In this document: piece after piece, positions 1 to 7,353 of the stretch
How positions within the stretch are numbered: the first letter of the stretch is position 1
Layout: each line of letters opens with the position of its first letter
From: a virus
Taxonomy: Duplodnaviria; Heunggongvirae; Uroviricota; Caudoviricetes
IMG/VR virus record: IMGVR_UViG_2529293037_000021
Location: 1 to 7,353 of that record
Strand: one strand, 5' to 3'
DNA: 7,353 nt
Position numbers and translations under genes: made by a program
Notes under the pieces: model-generated
What the model was told of the DNA's origin: nothing
Databases searched by the model: none
Seen by the model: only the letters and a program-made list of their open reading frames with translations

Positions 1-1
1 G

Positions 2-103
2 ATAGGGCCGGAGGCGGCAGGCAGTCTTGTGCAGCTGATTGACCAGCGGGTGCAGGCGGTGATGCTGTCCATGCGACGTGACGGAGGAATGCTGAGTGGC
101 TGA
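2..103 (+). CDS. C-terminal end of tail tape-measure protein (lambda gpH-like), partial at 5' end
   Basis: Open frame running in from the window start, stop TGA at 101-103 overlapping the GTG start of M at 96 (GTGGCTGA). Position directly upstream of M matches lambda H-M order. Assignment is by synteny only; the 33 translated residues are too short for me to recognise. Confidence 0.45.
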   Translation: MGPEAAGSLVQLIDQRVQAVMLSMRRDGGMLSG

Positions 104-437
104 GATAAAAACGCTGCATCTGGTCCCGCGTGAAGGGATGCAGGTGAGTGAGAAGCCGTCGGTGGTGAGGGTGCGGTTTGGTGACGGTTATGAACAGCGC
201 CGCCCCACAGGGCTGAATCCTCAACTGAAGACGTTTCAGGCGGTGTTCCGGGTGACGGATGAGTCAACCCGGCGCTGGCTGGATGAATTTTTATCCTGGC
301 ATGGTGGTTACCGTGCCTTTTTGTGGCGACCGCCGAAACATAACCGGACGGTGAGGGTTGTGTGCCGTGAGTGGAGTGTCACGGATAATGCCCGGTACAG
401 TGATTTCAGTTGCACGATAGAGCAGGTGGTGAACTGA
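96..437 (+). CDS. M: Minor tail protein M (lambda gpM family)
   Basis: 113-aa ORF with GTG start preceded by GGAGGAA (84-90). Translation contains VRFGDGY...HGG...FLW...EQVVN, which aligns along its length with lambda gpM as I recall it. Stop overlaps the L start (TGATG at 435-439). Confidence 0.88.
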   Translation: MAEIKTLHLVPREGMQVSEKPSVVRVRFGDGYEQRRPTGLNPQLKTFQAVFRVTDESTRRWLDEFLSWHGGYRAFLWRPPKHNRTVRVVCREWSVTDNARYSDFSCTIEQVVN

Positions 438-1134
438 TGCAGAATATTCATGAAGAAAGCCTGAACGAGTCGGTTAAGTCAGAGCAGTCACCGCGGGTGG
501 TGCTCTGGGAAATCGACCTGACGGTGCAGGGCGGTGAGCGGTATTTTTTCTGCAATGAGCTGAATGAAAAAAGGGAGCCGGTGACCTGGCAGGGGCGGCA
601 ATATCAGGCGTACCCGATTGAGGGCAGTGGCTTTGAGATGAACGGAAAGGGCAGCAGTGCCCGCCCGTCGCTGACGGTGTCCAATCTGTTCGGTCTTGTC
701 ACCGGGATGGCGGAGGATTTGCAGAGCCTGGTGGGTGCCACGGTGGTCCGCCGCCGGGTGTATGCCCGTTTTCTGGATGCGGTGAATTTTGTGGCGGGCA
801 ATCCGGAGGCGACCCGGAGCAGGAGCTGAGCGACCGCTGGGTGGTGGAGCAGATGTCAGAGCTGACGGCCATGACAGCCTCGTTTGTGCTGGCAACACCG
901 ACGGAGACGGACGGAGCGCTGTTTCCCGGTCGCATCATGCTGGCGAACACCTGTATGTGGGATTACCGGGGAGATGAATGCGGTTATCACGGTCCTGCGG
1001 TGGCGGATGAGTTCGACAACCCCACCACGGATATCCGGAAGGACAGATGCAGTAAATGCATGCGCGGGTGTGAGATGCGCGGCATGGTGGCTAATTTCGG
1101 CGGTTTCCTTTCCATTAACAAACTTTCGCAGTAA
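437..1134 (+). pseudogene. L: Tail tip protein L (lambda gpL family), interrupted by a 1-nt frameshift near 808-812
   Basis: N-terminal part (ATG 437, frame 2: MQNIHEESLNE...VVLWEIDLT...GERYFFCNE...VTWQGRQYQ...VNFVAGNPEA) stops at TGA 827-829. The C-terminal part continues in frame 1 from about 811 (DPEQELSDRWVVEQMSEL...TPTETDG...FPGRIMLANTC...NFGGFLSINKLSQ, stop 1132-1134). Both parts are collinear with lambda gpL, and restoring one base in GAGGCG(G)ACCCGG rejoins them. The true start is ATG 437, not the upstream in-frame ATG at 410. Confidence 0.85.
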
Positions 1135-1139
1135 ATCCA

Positions 1140-1883
1140 ATGACACAGACAGAATCAGCGATTCTGGCGCATGCCCGGCGGTGTGTGCCTGCGGAGTCGT
1201 GCGGCTTCGTGGTGAGAACGCCGGAGGGGGAGCGGTATATCCCTTGTGTGAATATCTCTGCAGAGCCGGAGGCGTATTTTCGTATTGCACCGGAAGACTG
1301 GCTGCGGGCAGAGATGCAGGGGGAGATTGTGGCACTGGTCCACAGTCATCCCGGTGGTCTGCCCTGGCTGAGCGAGGCCGACCGGCGGCTGCAGATAAAA
1401 AGTGCACTGTCCTGGTGGCTGGTCTGCCGGGGGGAAATTCATAAATTCCGCTGTGTGCCACATCTGACAGGACGGCGCTTTGAGCACGGGGTGACGGACT
1501 GTTACACGCTGTTCCGGGATGCTTATCATCTGGCGGGGACTGAAATGCCGGATTTTGAGCGTGAGGATGACTGGTGGCGCAACGGTCAGAACCTTTACCT
1601 GGACAATATGGCGGTCACCGGCTTTTACCGGGTGCCCCTGTCCTCTGCACAGGCGGGCGATATTCTGCTGTGCTGCTTTGGTGCTTCGGTACCGAACCAT
1701 GCCGCCATTTACTGCGGCAACGGTGAGCTGCTTCACCATCTGCCTGAACAACTGAGTAAACGGGAGAGGTATTCCGAAAAATGGCAACGACGAACGCATT
1801 CTGTCTGGCGTCACCGCCACTGGCACGCATCTGCCTTCACGGGGATTTGCAACGATTTGGCCGCCGCCTCAGCCTGTATGTGA
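1140..1883 (+). CDS. K: Tail assembly protein K (lambda gpK family) with N-terminal JAB/MPN metalloprotease-like domain and C-terminal NlpC/P60 cysteine peptidase-like domain
   Basis: 247-aa ORF starting 5 nt after the L stop. JAMM-type motif HSHPGGLPWLSEAD (H-x-H-x7-S-x2-D) with upstream Glu residues; NlpC/P60-like catalytic Cys in GVTDCYTLF and His in PNHAAIY/LLHH. Strong collinearity with lambda gpK. Confidence 0.9.
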   Translation: MTQTESAILAHARRCVPAESCGFVVRTPEGERYIPCVNISAEPEAYFRIAPEDWLRAEMQGEIVALVHSHPGGLPWLSEADRRLQIKSALSWWLVCRGEIHKFRCVPHLTGRRFEHGVTDCYTLFRDAYHLAGTEMPDFEREDDWWRNGQNLYLDNMAVTGFYRVPLSSAQAGDILLCCFGASVPNHAAIYCGNGELLHHLPEQLSKRERYSEKWQRRTHSVWRHRHWHASAFTGICNDLAAASACM

Positions 1884-2461
1884 ACACGGCAGCGGAAGCC
1901 ATCCGTGCCCTGTCGCTGCAGATGCCGGGATTCCGCCGTCAGATGAACGAAGGCTGGTACCAGATACGTATTCGCGGTGAGGACACGGCACCGGAGGCGG
2001 TGTACGCCCGTCTTCACGAACCTCTGGGTGAGGGGGCGGTCATCCATATTGTGCCGCGACTGGCCGGGGCCGGAAAGGGCGGACTGCAGATTGTGCTGGG
2101 GGCGGCAGCCATCGTGGGCTCTTTCTTCACGGCCGGGGCATCAATGGCGTTATGGGGTTCAGCCCTGGCAGCCGGTGGTTTTTCTGCCACCACGATGCTG
2201 TTTTCACTGGGGGCCAGCATGATTCTGGGCGGTGTGGCCCAGATGCTGGCCCCGAAGGCAAAAACACCGGATTACCGCGCAACGGATAACGGCAGACAGA
2301 ACACGTACTTTTCGTCACTGGATAACATGATTGCCCAGGGGAACCCGATGCCGGTGCCTTATGGTGAAATGCTGGTTGGTTCACGACGGATATCCCAGGA
2401 CATCAGCACCCGTGATGAGGGCGGAGACGGGAAGGTGGTGGTTATCGGGCGGCAGGCATGA
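1781..2461 (+). CDS. I: Tail assembly protein I (lambda gpI family; N-terminal ubiquitin-like domain, Gly/Ala-rich hydrophobic C-terminal half)
   Basis: 226-aa ORF overlapping the 3' end of K by 103 nt in a different frame, as in lambda K/I. Translation contains ARICLHGDLQRFGRR, AVIHIVPR, FSLGASMILGGVAQMLAPKA, TDNGRQNTYFSSLDNM and ends VVVIGRQA, closely matching lambda gpI. Confidence 0.9.
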   Translation: MATTNAFCLASPPLARICLHGDLQRFGRRLSLYVNTAAEAIRALSLQMPGFRRQMNEGWYQIRIRGEDTAPEAVYARLHEPLGEGAVIHIVPRLAGAGKGGLQIVLGAAAIVGSFFTAGASMALWGSALAAGGFSATTMLFSLGASMILGGVAQMLAPKAKTPDYRATDNGRQNTYFSSLDNMIAQGNPMPVPYGEMLVGSRRISQDISTRDEGGDGKVVVIGRQA

Positions 2462-2472
2462 AAGCGAAAAAA

Positions 2473-2504
2473 TCCCGCAGTGCTCACGGACAGGAACTGC
2501 GGGA
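2473..2504 (-). terminator. Putative rho-independent terminator for minus-strand (sodC) transcription
   Basis: Inverted repeat TCCCGCAGT (2473-2481) / ACTGCGGGA (2496-2504), 9-bp stem with 14-nt loop. On the minus strand it is followed immediately by a T6 run (the + strand A-run at 2467-2472). Sits just after the I stop codon. Confidence 0.5.
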
Positions 2505-2622
2505 GCGTTACGAAGATTGAGTGTAAGGAATTATTCTTATGTCACGACAAAAACATTAACTCAGAGAGGGAGGATGTGCCGTTCTTTTCAGGGAGAAAGG
2601 ATTTATCGTCCTGAGGAATAAA

Positions 2623-2644
2623 GGTAAGGGGCCCGCCCCTTACC
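2623..2644. terminator. GC-rich hairpin between the convergent I and sodC genes; possible bidirectional or sodC-proximal terminator
   Basis: Perfect inverted repeat GGTAAGGGG-CCCG-CCCCTTACC (9-bp stem, 4-nt loop), 8 nt beyond the sodC stop. On the minus strand it is followed by TTTATTCC; on the + strand by TGACTGATTATTG (weak U-tract). Confidence 0.45.
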
Positions 2645-2651
2645 TGACTGA

Positions 2652-3179
2652 TTATTGAATGATGCCGCAGGCCATTCTCGCACCACCACCGCCCAGGGGC
2701 TCCGGATGGTCATGATGGTTATCACCGCCAGCATGAAGCATGAGAGAACGCCCTTTAATCTCTTTTAATGAGTTCAGTCTCGGGGCCAGGACCGGGTAGT
2801 TCGCTTTTCCGTCATGCGTCACGAACAGCGCAGGGAGGTCGCCCAGGTGTCCATCCGGAGACCAGGGGCCAAGATGTTTGCCGGTGTTTTTCGGGTCAAA
2901 GTGACCGCCAGCCGATAATGCTGCGACCGGTTTTCCGTCTTTCAGTGCCGGGGCGCAATTTCCTTTTTCGTGCACATGAAAACCATGAATGCCTTCAGAC
3001 AGAGAGTGAAGGGCTGGTGTGAACAGCAGACCGTAGGGGGTCTCCTGAATGGTTATTTTTCCAATGCTGACTTCTTTTCCGTCAGCACTGACAAGGTTCA
3101 TTGGGACTTCCTGTTCTGCTGCGTATCCGCATGATGCTGCTGTCAGCATGGCAATGGCAGCAATGATTTTACATTTCAT
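2652..3179 (-). CDS. sodC: Periplasmic Cu,Zn superoxide dismutase (SodC family), prophage-encoded cargo gene
   Basis: 175-aa ORF (ATG is the reverse complement of 3177-3179; SD GAGGG about 5 nt upstream on the minus strand). N-terminal signal-peptide-like segment [20 protein letters not shown]. Conserved Cu/Zn-SOD motifs: [10 protein letters not shown] (Cu His ligands, disulfide Cys), GGHFDP (bridging His), [17 protein letters not shown] (Zn ligands), [21 protein letters not shown] (Arg and second disulfide Cys). Closely resembles Salmonella SodCI and E. coli prophage SodC as I recall them. The six-frame ORF extends to 3686, but that N-terminal extension is antisense to J and is not part of the gene. 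Confidence 0.93.
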
Positions 3180-3312
3180 AAAACCCTCATTAATTCCGTT
3201 AACAGACTGAGCTTGCTGGTTACAGGGTAACAAACAGCGTTCTGATGATATCGCGCAATAGCTGTGCAATATCCTATCACTGCGATTAATAATACCAATT
3301 GAGAGGAACATT
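3180..3312. promoter_or_regulatory. Intergenic region between divergent sodC and J; probable sodC promoter region and the J ribosome-binding site
   Basis: 133-bp AT-richer spacer. J SD GAGAGGA at 3301-3307 before ATG 3313. On the minus strand, a weak sigma70-like pair TTGGTA (reverse complement of 3293-3298) -16 nt- TAGGAT (reverse complement of 3271-3276) is the best candidate I can see. No strong consensus promoter is visible. Confidence 0.3.
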
Positions 3313-4881
3313 ATGGGTAAAGGTGGCGGCAGGGCGCACACGCCGGTTGAGGCAAAGGACAATCTTAAGTCCACGCAGATGATGAGCGTGATTGATGCCA
3401 TTGGTGAAGGGCCGATTGAAGGTCCGGTGAAGGGGCTGCAGAGTATCCTGGTGAACAAAACCCCGCTGACGGACACGGACGGTAATCCTGTGATACATGG
3501 TGTGACAGCGGTCTGGCGCGCCGGGGAGCAGGAGCAGACACCACCTGAAGGCTTTGAGTCTTCCGGAGCTGAAACCGCACTGGGCGTGGAAGTGACGAAG
3601 GCAAAGCCGGTGACGCGCACCATTACGTCCGCGAACATTGACCGCCTGCGGGTCACCTTCGGGGTGCAGTCACTGTTGGAGACCACCTCAAAGGGCGACC
3701 GTAATCACTCTTCTGTCCGACTGCTGATTCAGTTGCAGCGTAACGGTAACTGGGTGACGGAAAAGGATGTCACCATTAACGGCAAGACCACCTCGCAGTT
3801 CCTGGCGTCGGTGATTCTGGATAATCTGCCTCCCCGTCCCTTTAACATCCGGATGGTCCGGGAGACGGCGGACAGCACCACGGACCAGCTGCAGAATAAG
3901 ACGCTCTGGTCGTCATACACCGAAATCATCGATGTGAAACAGTGCTACCCGAACACGGCGATTGTGGGGCTGCAGGTGGATGCGGAGCAGTTTGGCGGCC
4001 AGCAGATGACGGTGAACTACCATATCCGAGGTCGCATCATCCAGGTGCCGTCAAACTATGACCCGGAAAAACGCACGTACAGCGGCATCTGGGACGGCAG
4101 CCTGAAACCGGCATACAGCAACAACCCGGCCTGGTGCCTGTGGGACATGCTGACTCACCCGCGCTACGGCATGGGAAAACGCCTGGGGGCCGCGGATGTG
4201 GACAAGTGGGCGCTGTATGCCATCGGGCAGTACTGTGACCAGCGTGTCCCTGATGGCTTCGGAGGGACAGAGCCGCGGATGACCTTTAATGCGTACCTGT
4301 CACAACAGCGTAAGGCGTGGGACGTTCTCAGTGATTTCTGCTCGGCGATGCGCTGTATGCCGGTATGGAACGGCCAGACGCTGACGTTCGTTCAGGACCG
4401 CCCGTCGGATGTGGTGTGGCCGTACACCAACTGCGATGTGGTGGTGGATGATAACGGCGTGGGGTTTCGCTACAGCTTCAGCGCCCTGAAGGACCGCCAC
4501 ACGGCGGTGGAGGTGAATTACACCGACCCGCAGAACGGCTGGCAGACCTCCACGGAACTGGTGGAAGACCCGGAAGCCATACTGCGCTACGGGCGCAACC
4601 TGCTGAAGATGGATGCGTTCGGCTGCACCAGTCGCGGTCAGGCCCACCGTGCCGGGCTGTGGGTGATAAAGACCGGACTGCTGGAAACGCAGACGGTGGA
4701 TTTCACGCTCGGGTCACAGGGGCTGCGTCACACACCCGGTGACATTATTGAAATCTGTGATAACGACTATGCCGGGACCATGACCGGCGGACGTGTCCTG
4801 TCCATCGATGCCGCCAGCCGCACGCGCAGTACTGCGACCAGACGGTCCCGGATGGTTTCGGGGGCACAGAGCCGCGGATGA
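3313..4881 (+). CDS. J: Host specificity / central tail fibre protein J (lambda gpJ family), N-terminal fragment ending at a frameshift created by an internal tandem duplication
   Basis: 522-aa ORF starting [22 protein letters not shown], collinear with the lambda gpJ N-terminus ([67 protein letters not shown]) up to ...[13 protein letters not shown]. It then reads the second repeat copy out of frame ([18 protein letters not shown]) and stops at TGA 4879-4881. Confidence 0.85.
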
Positions 4882-5421
4882 CTTTCAATGCGTACCTGTC
4901 ACAACAGCGTAAGGCGTGGGACGTTCTCAGTGATTTCTGCTCGGCGATGCGCCGTATGCCGGTATGGAACGGCAAGACGCTGACGTTTGTGCAGGACCGT
5001 CCGTCAGATGTGGTGTGGCCCTACACCAGCAGTGATGTGGTGGTGGATGATAACGGCGTGGGGTTTCGCTACAGCTTCAGCGCCCTGAAGGACCGCCACA
5101 CGGCGGTGGAGGTGAATTACACCGACCCGCAGAACGGCTGGCAGACCTCCACGGAACTGGTGGAAGACCCGGAAGCCATACTGCGCTACGGGCGCAACCT
5201 GCTGAAGATGGATGCGTTCGGCTGCACCAGTCGCGGTCAGGCCCACCGTGCCGGGCTGTGGGTGATAAAGACCGGACTGCTGGAAACGCAGACGATGGAT
5301 TTCACGCTCGGGTCACAGGGGCTGCGTCACACACCCGGTGACATTATTGAAATCTGTGATAACGACTATGCCGGGACCATGACCGGCGGACGTGTCCTGT
5401 CCATCGATGCCGCCAGCCGCA
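4224..5421 (+). repeat. Imperfect tandem direct duplication inside J, period 599 bp (copy 1 about 4224-4822, copy 2 about 4823-5421)
   Basis: Direct comparison of the two segments: both start ...GCAGTACTG... and end ...ATCGATGCCGCCAGCCGCAC. About 20 mismatches cluster in the first ~215 bp of the unit and only 1 in the remaining ~385 bp. 599 is not a multiple of 3. The near-identical antisense ORFs at 4300-4647 and 5004-5246 in the ORF track are a by-product of the repeat. Confidence 0.9.
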
Positions 5422-7353
5422 CCCTGACACTGGACCGTGAGGTGACCCTGCCGGAGACAGGTACACCGACGGTGAACCTGATTAACGGCAGCGGTAAGCC
5501 GGTGAGCGTGGCCATCACTGCACACCCCGCGCCGGACCGGATACAGGTCAGCACCCTGCCGGATGGCGTGGAGACATACGGTGTATGGGGACTCTCCCTG
5601 CCGTCACTGCGTCGTCGCCTGTTCCGCTGTGTCTCCGTCCGGGAAAACACGGACGGCACCTTTGCCATCACGGCGGTGCAGCACGTACCGGAAAAAGAAG
5701 CCATCGTGGATAACGGTGCCCGCTTTGAGCCGCAGTCAGGCACCCTGAACAGCGTCATCCCTCCGGCAGTGCAGCACCTGACGGTGGAGGTGAGCGCAGC
5801 TGACGGCCAGTATCTGGCGCAGGTGAAATGGGACACGCCGCGGGTGGTGAAGGGCGTGCGCTTCAGTCTGCGCCTGACCAGCGGAAGCGGAGAAGGCAGC
5901 CGTCTGGTGACCACCGCCATCACTGCGGATACAGAGCATCGTTCCAGTGGTCTGCCGCCGGGGGAATACACCCTGACGGTCAGGGCGATTAACAGTTATG
6001 GCCAGCAGGGGGAACCGGCCACCACCACGTTCAGGATTAATGCACCTGCGGTACCCGCCACGATTGAGCTGACACCGGGCTATTTTCAGATAACAGCGGT
6101 CCCGCGTCTTGCGGTGTATGACCCGACGGTACAGTTTGAGTTCTGGTTTTCGGAGACAAAAATCGCAGATACATCTCAGGTGGAAACCTCTGCCCGTTAT
6201 CTGGGGACCGGCAGTCAGTGGACTGTCCAGGGAAGCCGGATTAAGCCGGGGACGGATTTCTGGTTTTACGTGCGCAGCGTCAACCTGGTGGGGAAATCTG
6301 CGTTTGTGGAAGTCAGCGGGCAGCCCAGCAATGATGGTGAAGGGTATCTGGAATTTTTCCGGGAAAAAATAGGAAAACTGCATCTGGCTCAGGGGCTATG
6401 GGAGCTGATAGACAACAGCCAGCTTGCGGATGAGATGGCGGAGATGAAGACCACCATCACGGAAACCCGCAATGAAATCACACAGACGGTCAGTAAAACG
6501 CTGGAGAACCAGAGCGCCATCATACAGCAGATACAGCGCGTGCAGAAGGACACAAATGATGACCTTGCTGCACTTTACATGCTGAAGGTACAGAAAACAA
6601 AAAATGGCATACCCTATGTTGCCGGTATTGGAGCGGGGATTGAGGATACTGATGGCCAGCCCCTGAGCAACATACTGCTGCTGGCTGACCGTATTGCGAT
6701 GATTAACCCGGAGGACGGCAACACCACGCCGTTATTTGTGGCGCAGGGGAATCAGTTGTTCATGAACGATGTGTTCCTGAAACGACTGTTTGCGGTGAGT
6801 ATCACGTCATCCGCCAATCCCCCGACGTTTTCCCTGACGCCGGAGGGCAGGCTGACCGCAAGAAATGCTGATATCAGCGGTAACGTGAATGCGAATTCCG
6901 GGACGCTCAACAACGTCACGATTAACGGGAACTGTCGGGTTCTGGGAAAACTGTCCGCGAACCAGATTGAAGGCGATCTCGTTAAAACAGTGGGCAAAGC
7001 TTTCCCCCGGGACTCCCGTGCACCGGAGCGGTGGCCATCAGGGACCATTACCGTCAGGGTTTATGACGATCAGCCGTTTGACCGGCAGATTGTTATTCCG
7101 GCGGTGGCATTCAGCGGCGCTAAACATGAGAGAGAGCATACTGATATTTACTCCTCATGCCGTCTGATAGTGCGGAAAAACGGTGCTGAAATTTATAACC
7201 GTACCGCGCTGGATAATACGCTGATTTACAGTGGCGTTATTGATATGCCTGCCGGTCACGGTCACATGACGCTGGAGTTTTCGGTGTCAGCATGGCTGGT
7301 AAATAACTGGTATCCCACAGCAAGTATCAGCGATTTGCTGGTTGTGGTGATGA
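4878..7353 (+). CDS. J: Host specificity protein J, C-terminal portion (second repeat copy onward) in the shifted frame; partial, runs past the 3' end of the window
   Basis: The frame with codons at positions divisible by 3 is open from the stop at 4761-4763 to the window end. The first ATG is at 4878 and overlaps the stop of the N-terminal fragment (ATGA). Translation ([15 protein letters not shown]...[18 protein letters not shown]...[33 protein letters not shown]...[11 protein letters not shown]...VFLKRL...[14 protein letters not shown]...) is collinear with the lambda gpJ middle and C-terminal regions. Whether translation actually starts at 4878 is unknown. Confidence 0.6.

Follow-up and report, generated by a model that had tools for sequence, protein, structure and literature searches.

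The sodC-F1 gene lies antisense between tail genes I and J of a lambdoid prophage

A Cu,Zn superoxide dismutase gene in the I-J gap

The window, by which we mean the whole stretch of 7,353 nucleotides that was analysed (positions 1 to 7,353 of the IMG/VR virus record IMGVR_UViG_2529293037_000021), is a block of lambdoid tail genes encoded on the plus strand, each assigned by Pfam family (Table 1). A gene for a Cu,Zn superoxide dismutase (SOD) is found on the opposite strand, between I and J. The initial annotation had placed this gene at 2652-3179 of the minus strand within an I-J gap of about 850 bp, and all of its coordinates proved accurate: the gap measures 851 bp, with I ending at position 2461 and J starting at position 3313. 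The corresponding gap in lambda, which had been put at a few tens of bp, was measured as 60 bp (from the end of I at 15444 to the start of J at 15505).

The sodC gene is contained within a longer minus-strand open frame in the ORF table (2652-3686). The evidence supports the ATG at position 3179 as its start, which gives a product of 175 amino acids and a stop codon at 2652-2654. With this start, the product agrees with the NCBIfam SodC model over its full length (residues 2-174), and the start annotated in five nucleotide-identical copies of the gene is the same one.

Table 1 Features of the tail block and of the sodC cassette within it
Feature	Coordinates	Strand	Details
M (minor tail protein)	96..437	+	Pfam Phage_min_tail 4.8e-29
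L, frameshifted	437..1134	+	ORFs 437-829 and 841-1134; 1-nt deletion near 811
K (JAB/MPN and NlpC/P60 peptidase)	1140..1883	+	Pfam Prok-JAB 3.1e-15, NLPC_P60 6.3e-13
Tail assembly gene I	1781..2461	+	Pfam Lambda_tail_I 1.6e-15
I-proximal spacer	2462..2567		106 nt, 43% GC; common to sodC-less prophages, outside the cassette
Second terminator-like hairpin	2474..2490	-	Adjoins the end of gene I; terminator scan and fold
sodC cassette	2568..3312	-	745 bp, 50.5% GC; takes the place of the distal I-J spacer
Proximal terminator-like hairpin	2622..2645	-	6 nt past the sodC stop codon; 10-bp stem AGGTAAGGGGC GG GCCCCTTACCT
sodC (SodC-F1 allele)	2652..3179	-	175 codons and stop; Cu,Zn superoxide dismutase precursor
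Signal peptide	3120..3179	-	Residues 1-20, read from the sequence; cleavage sites from PMC2569942
AT-rich upstream region, presumed to bear the promoter	3180..3312	-	133 bp, 39.8% GC
Shine-Dalgarno GAGGG	3184..3188	-	4 nt before the sodC ATG; read from the sequence
J 5' fragment (tail tip / host specificity)	3313..4881	+	FNIII-A_GpJ 2.1e-41, Phage-tail_3 4e-38
599-nt tandem duplication inside J	4224..5422	+	Copies 96.3% identical, lag 599 nt
J 3' part	4824..7353	+	Restarts at J nucleotide 913; a single frame is open from about 4770 up to the window's end

The borders of the sodC-bearing segment were drawn from a comparison with the sodC-less phage LC727876. Homology to this phage ends at position 2567 and resumes at position 3313, and the cassette was therefore assigned to the 745 bp in between, where LC727876 carries 131 bp of unrelated spacer. 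The segment next to gene I falls outside the cassette: it shares 98% identity with the I-J spacer in LC727876, and matches to it alone occur in E. coli genomes without sodC. This I-proximal spacer has a minus-strand hairpin followed by T6 that opposes the late operon, even where there is no antisense cargo.

The cassette differs in composition from the genes on either side, with a GC content of 50.5% over its full length and 39.8% upstream of sodC, compared with 58.7% from M to I and 58.1% in J. A transposon-like insertion was considered and rejected, no direct or inverted repeats being found to bound the cassette. Among the relatives, the I-J spacers are non-homologous replacements of one another. 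Just before J, lambda and two sodC-less prophages have a plus-strand GC-rich hairpin with a T-run (lambda, L007 2446-2505; LC727876, L002 at about 3235-3270; a second sodC-less prophage, L005 at about 7580-7615), and the cassette has none.

Family, allele and published properties of the product

The product matched the Pfam family Sod_Cu (PF00080; 3.9e-32, 111.9 bits against a cut-off of 28.9, positions 3-133 of the 133 in the profile) as well as the NCBIfam equivalog for SodC, NF007628 (218.4 bits against a cut-off of 165, model positions 2-172 of 172), and homologues of known structure were recovered from the PDB at 1e-62 to 1e-56 (1z9n, 2wwn, 1eqw, 1eso). The family is settled by the solved homologues, at about 60% identity, together with the annotation of the exact sequence. 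Judged by its sequence, with a match far beyond chance, the product is a genuine Cu,Zn-SOD, and the gene is complete and antisense, as had been claimed for it, over all 175 codons.

The window protein was aligned with SodCI of Gifsy-2, SodCIII of Fels-1, SodC of E. coli K-12 and human SOD1. The copper ligands (H68, H70, H93 and H149), the zinc ligands (H93, H102, H111 and D114), the active-site arginine R168 and the disulfide cysteine C171 were invariant across the five sequences. The partner cysteine of the disulfide, C75, is kept in the four bacterial enzymes, and its human counterpart was gap-shifted by the automatic alignment. In human SOD1 we take H46, H48, H63 and H120 to be the equivalents of the copper histidines of the window protein, and H63 (bridging), H71, H80 and D83 to be those of its zinc site. 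The conservation of metal-ligand and disulfide residues reported by the initial annotation was confirmed, with respect to the ligand pattern, by this alignment.

Nucleotide for nucleotide, the window coding sequence equals the sodC annotated (as WP_000649829.1) in four E. coli chromosomal prophages and that of a deposited Stx2a-converting phage genome, Stx2_EH2201. The chromosomes with the identical coding sequence are of O121, O157:H7 and O111:H11, and 1000 contigs or more carry the exact protein, recorded as SodC. Of 5426 complete E. coli genomes, 547 contain 80% or more of the 851-bp I-J gap; matches to the gap at 99% or more were obtained for 540 records among the complete E. coli genomes searched.

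The two prophage alleles of O157:H7 differ only at nucleotide 335, where sodC-F1 encodes leucine and sodC-F2 proline, and both products, SodC-F1 as well as SodC-F2, have been described with a mature protein of 155 amino acids and an AASC lipobox with Cys17 as the N-terminus (D'Orazio et al. 2008, PMC2569942). In the window, codon 112 is CTG (leucine, with T at nucleotide 335) as in SodC-F1, and the prophage context is lambdoid. The N-terminal signal peptide, read directly from the translation, starts with MKCK and ends in SCGYA before AE; it includes AASC at residues 14-17 (nucleotides 3129-3140), and its 20 residues taken from 175 leave a mature protein of 155. Leu112, the AASC lipobox and the mature length therefore identify the window gene as the sodC-F1 allele. 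It is the known prophage sodC-F1 (RefSeq WP_000649829.1), which has been annotated, published and experimentally characterised before; Cu/Zn-SOD genes are listed for the Sakai prophages Sp4 and Sp10 (Ogura et al. 2007). The kinship to the prophage sodC of O157 proposed by the initial annotation was thus borne out to the level of the allele, both in the search against SodC families, with the match to NF007628, and in the nucleotide identity with annotated prophage sodC.

Purified SodC-F1 is a dimer with an activity of 19,380 U/mg, compared with 6,290 U/mg for chromosomal SodC, and it resists proteinase K and EDTA (PMC2569942). Its expression is independent of RpoS and extends to log phase and anaerobic growth, and the enzyme is enriched relative to SodC in bacteria within Caco-2 cells (PMC2569942). 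Mutants with sodC-F deleted have lower H2O2 survival; this phenotype of E. coli SodC-F was obtained in vitro, and no animal virulence phenotype was shown (PMC2569942). By analogy with the matching allele, the window product would share the activity of SodC-F1, its dimeric state, RpoS independence, dual localisation and H2O2 phenotype, and the earlier prediction of an active enzyme is consistent with the activity of that allele in published experiments. Resistance to the oxidative burst of the host, also suggested earlier, has direct evidence in the case of Salmonella SodCI, whereas the evidence for the E. coli allele consists of H2O2 survival and enrichment within Caco-2 cells.

Candidate expression signals around sodC

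The initial annotation had credited sodC with its own Shine-Dalgarno sequence and with hairpin terminators. A GAGGG motif is indeed found at the appropriate place, and two terminator-like minus-strand hairpins lie downstream of the gene (Table 1). Upstream of sodC, the 133 bp up to J are 100% identical to those of the other copies. A strict sigma-70 scan of 2300-3500 gave no promoter at threshold, and a relaxed sigma-70 scan returned only weak candidates with 8/12 matches, the best of which combines, on the minus strand, TTGGTA (3298-3293), 16 nt and TGaTAGGAT (-10 at 3276-3271). The region upstream of sodC-F drives lacZ fusions, and expression in uninduced cultures was observed with epitope-tagged chromosomal sodC-F copies as well as with lacZ fusions (PMC2569942). 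The sodC promoter of the window probably lies within 3180-3312.

Salmonella sodCI is under PhoPQ control. Control by a PhoP box (KGTTTA-N5-KGTTTA, up to 3 mismatches) was considered for the window gene and rejected: the window holds 15 matches against 7.7 expected, none of them in 3197-3312, and the two PhoP-box-like matches near the sodC start codon are at chance level.

Downstream of sodC, the proximal hairpin folds at -19 kcal/mol (z = -2.7) and is followed by the tail TTATTCCTCA (TTATT). The palindrome folds on the plus strand too, and terminator function is uncertain because the U-tract is poor (UUUAUUCC). The second hairpin folds at -16.1 kcal/mol (z = -2.1) with the tail ATTTTTTCGC (ATTTTTT). 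A terminator scan of 2300-3500 (1.2 kb) returned 5 sites against 1.1 expected. As matches to the consensus, both minus-strand hairpins are putative terminators of sodC transcription.

An Rfam search of 2300-3500 gave a single match of note, a weak one to STnc400 at 2612-2688 of the minus strand (23 bits against a gathering threshold of 80, E = 0.09), which spans the 3' end of sodC and the hairpin. Since no STnc400 was found at gathering threshold near sodC in either Gifsy-2 or Fels-1, this match was judged to be due to chance. A 15-codon plus-strand ORF (MCRSFQGERIYRPEE) at the left edge of the cassette (2574-2621), with GGAGG abutting its ATG and its end at the 2622-2645 hairpin, is probably a chance occurrence.

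Related cargo genes, the tail module and the role of the cassette

SodC-F1 and SodC-F2 of O157:H7 (CP-933R and CP-933V in EDL933; Sp4 and Sp10 in Sakai) occur in the same lambdoid prophage context as the window gene. Compared with O157:H7 SodC-F1 the gene is the same, and it is the window prophage that differs, by its frameshifted L and the 599-nt duplication in J. In Fels-1, sodCIII (STM0924) lies antisense between homologues of I and J, as in the window, and is of similar size, with 60% protein identity. However, the coding region alone is homologous (about 70% at the nucleotide level over 343 nt), while the promoter and terminator flanks are unrelated, so that the Fels-1 cassette is either a separate one or a much older one. 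The Hfq-binding sRNA isrG (290 bits) falls inside the tail-fibre gene span of Fels-1 (NC_010391; L004 385-663), about 4 kb from sodCIII, and has no counterpart in the window.

SodCI of Gifsy-2 (STM1044) is likewise a prophage-borne dimeric Cu,Zn-SOD, with 59% protein identity to the window product, encoded antisense in the tail block, but its gene is located between a lom-like gene and L rather than between I and J. Its regulatory and stability properties parallel those of SodC-F (PMC2569942). SodCI has been shown to contribute to Salmonella virulence, whereas D'Orazio et al. 2008 gives no animal virulence data for SodC-F (PMC2569942). In lysogens, sodCI is highly expressed while Gifsy-2's lytic genes are silent, and antisense orientation is characteristic of accessory loci (Owen et al. 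2020). An antisense sodC inside the tail block is thus a recurring arrangement and is not peculiar to the window.

The chromosomal SodC of E. coli (b1646; 59% identity) has the same fold and ligand set, is exported, and matches the same NCBIfam equivalog. Unlike SodC-F1, it is monomeric, RpoS-dependent, present only in aerobic stationary phase, fully soluble, and less active and stable (PMC2569942); unlike the window protein, it has no lipobox. The sodC cassette also resembles lambda-type morons such as lom and bor, self-contained genes of atypical composition between conserved phage genes; like them, it would be expressed from the repressed prophage and benefit the host. The lom gene of lambda is located downstream of J and co-oriented with the late genes, in contrast to the sodC cassette, which is antisense inside the tail block.

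The tail genes on either side of the cassette are not all intact. The two ORFs of L match positions 3-98 and 109-206 of the Phage_tail_L profile, and the indel that separates them, mapped against two intact L genes, is the loss of one G from a GG pair (GGCGGACCC to GGCGACCC). The J frame breaks at the duplication junction 4823/4824 and meets a stop codon at 4879-4881; past the duplication, over 5423-7353, J is 100% / 99.7% identical to J of O157:H7 Rafaela_II. Base for base, the same junction is found in E. coli 28RC1 and CEC13004, where J is annotated as two pseudogene pieces and where the prophages with this split J have no sodC. The shared junction points to one ancestral event that would later have been recombined into different backbones. 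The combination of sodC, frameshifted L and duplicated J was not seen among the top-ranked complete E. coli genomes. In two sodC-less related prophages (L005 14222-16222; L006 11222-12823) the tail-fibre genes are succeeded downstream by a run of three genes with a DUF1076 domain; this run is followed by a DinI-like gene in 28RC1, where the prophage adjoins a truncated ydfJ.

Read at face value, the tail module in the window is apparently defective, with an intact sodC inside. Part of this decay could be an artefact, such that the L deletion is a sequencing or assembly error and the prophage is less damaged than it appears. We lean against this reading but give it appreciable weight, as the deletion removes just one G of a pair, occurs in none of the 5426 complete E. 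coli genomes (the best match, at 99.4%, keeps the extra base), and is spanned by a 36-mer whose exact sequence is absent from the GTDB representative genomes. The L deletion is thus either a strain-specific pseudogene mutation or a sequencing error. The J duplication junction, on the other hand, is real, being identical in two independently finished genomes, and J is therefore disrupted whether or not the L deletion is genuine.

Taken together, these results strongly support a model in which sodC-F1 forms a moron, a self-contained unit of 745 bp that lies in the I-J spacer and opposes the late genes, and we consider it close to certain that this is the best explanation of the locus. In this model sodC would have a promoter of its own within the AT-rich 133 bp abutting the J start codon and be translated from the GAGGG ribosome-binding site, with transcription ending at the GC-rich hairpin past the stop codon and the T-run hairpin beside gene I as a second presumed terminator. 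The precursor would be exported by its 20-residue signal peptide; cleavage by signal peptidase I would yield a soluble periplasmic enzyme, and processing at the AASC lipobox a lipid-anchored fraction. The mature 155-residue enzyme is expected to dimerise and to dismutate superoxide in the cell envelope, by which the lysogen may resist exogenous oxidative stress while the prophage is repressed. For relatives with an intact J, it is a reasonable inference that late transcripts cross sodC in antisense, as the initial annotation had proposed.

The proposed moron could differ from this outline in where its product resides. The AASC motif with Cys17 is present in the window protein, and the product might therefore be chiefly a membrane-anchored lipoprotein rather than a soluble periplasmic enzyme. 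We regard this as unlikely. The lipobox has Ala at position -3, where Leu, Val or Ile is usual. LipoP predicts an SPase II site before Cys17 in addition to an SPase I site after residue 20, and SodC-F1 partitions partly into the detergent phase, both as recombinant protein and in O157 cells, but the same fractionations contain a substantial soluble periplasmic fraction, which indicates mixed processing (PMC2569942). The description of the product as a periplasmic enzyme in the initial annotation accordingly stands for the soluble fraction and not for the part that is lipobox-processed and membrane-associated.

Two other readings concern whom, if anyone, the gene serves. With L frameshifted, J interrupted and no consensus promoter returned by the strict scan, sodC might be viewed as a decaying relic in a prophage that is losing its tail genes, its enzyme no longer active or expressed. 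This is extremely improbable, given that the gene is identical at every nucleotide to copies from prophages whose tail genes are intact, retains all catalytic residues, matches the NCBIfam equivalog over its full length above cut-off, and corresponds to an allele that yields active enzyme and is expressed at its native locus (PMC2569942). The cassette could alternatively serve the phage, either because convergent transcription damps late expression of I and J or because the SOD protects the cell during lytic growth; the orientation against the late operon, the position abutting the J start codon and the loss of the pre-J plus-strand hairpin of lambda and the sodC-less relatives would fit this idea. 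We nevertheless hold it to be very unlikely: transcription of sodC is directed away from J, with two terminator-like hairpins in its path ahead of I, the same cassette is present in relatives with intact tail genes, and the published expression in uninduced cultures resembles that of sodCI (PMC2569942; Owen et al. 2020).

The five prophages with an identical cassette (100%) differ in their flanks, with M, L, K, I and J mostly about 1-10% removed from the window and some far more; all five have one SodC protein accession, yet differing accessions for every tail protein. The sequences suggest that the cassette has either spread recently by recombination or been strongly conserved, as cargo, compared with the backbone. 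It is conceivable, although we give the idea little credence, that the cassette is an independently selected unit sweeping by recombination through diverged lambdoid prophages and remaining intact as their tail genes decay; this proposal is drawn from the complete identity of the cassette across diverged backbones and its intact state beside a broken L and J. As a bolder extension, constitutive antisense transcription together with the lost pre-J plus-strand hairpin may alter late tail-gene expression.

SodC enzymes encoded by prophages are a textbook case of lysogenic conversion. What the present locus adds is modest and quantitative, namely that the sodC-F1 cassette is invariant over many diverged tail backbones and survives in an apparently defective tail module, a pattern that fits the cargo, rather than the phage, being under selection.
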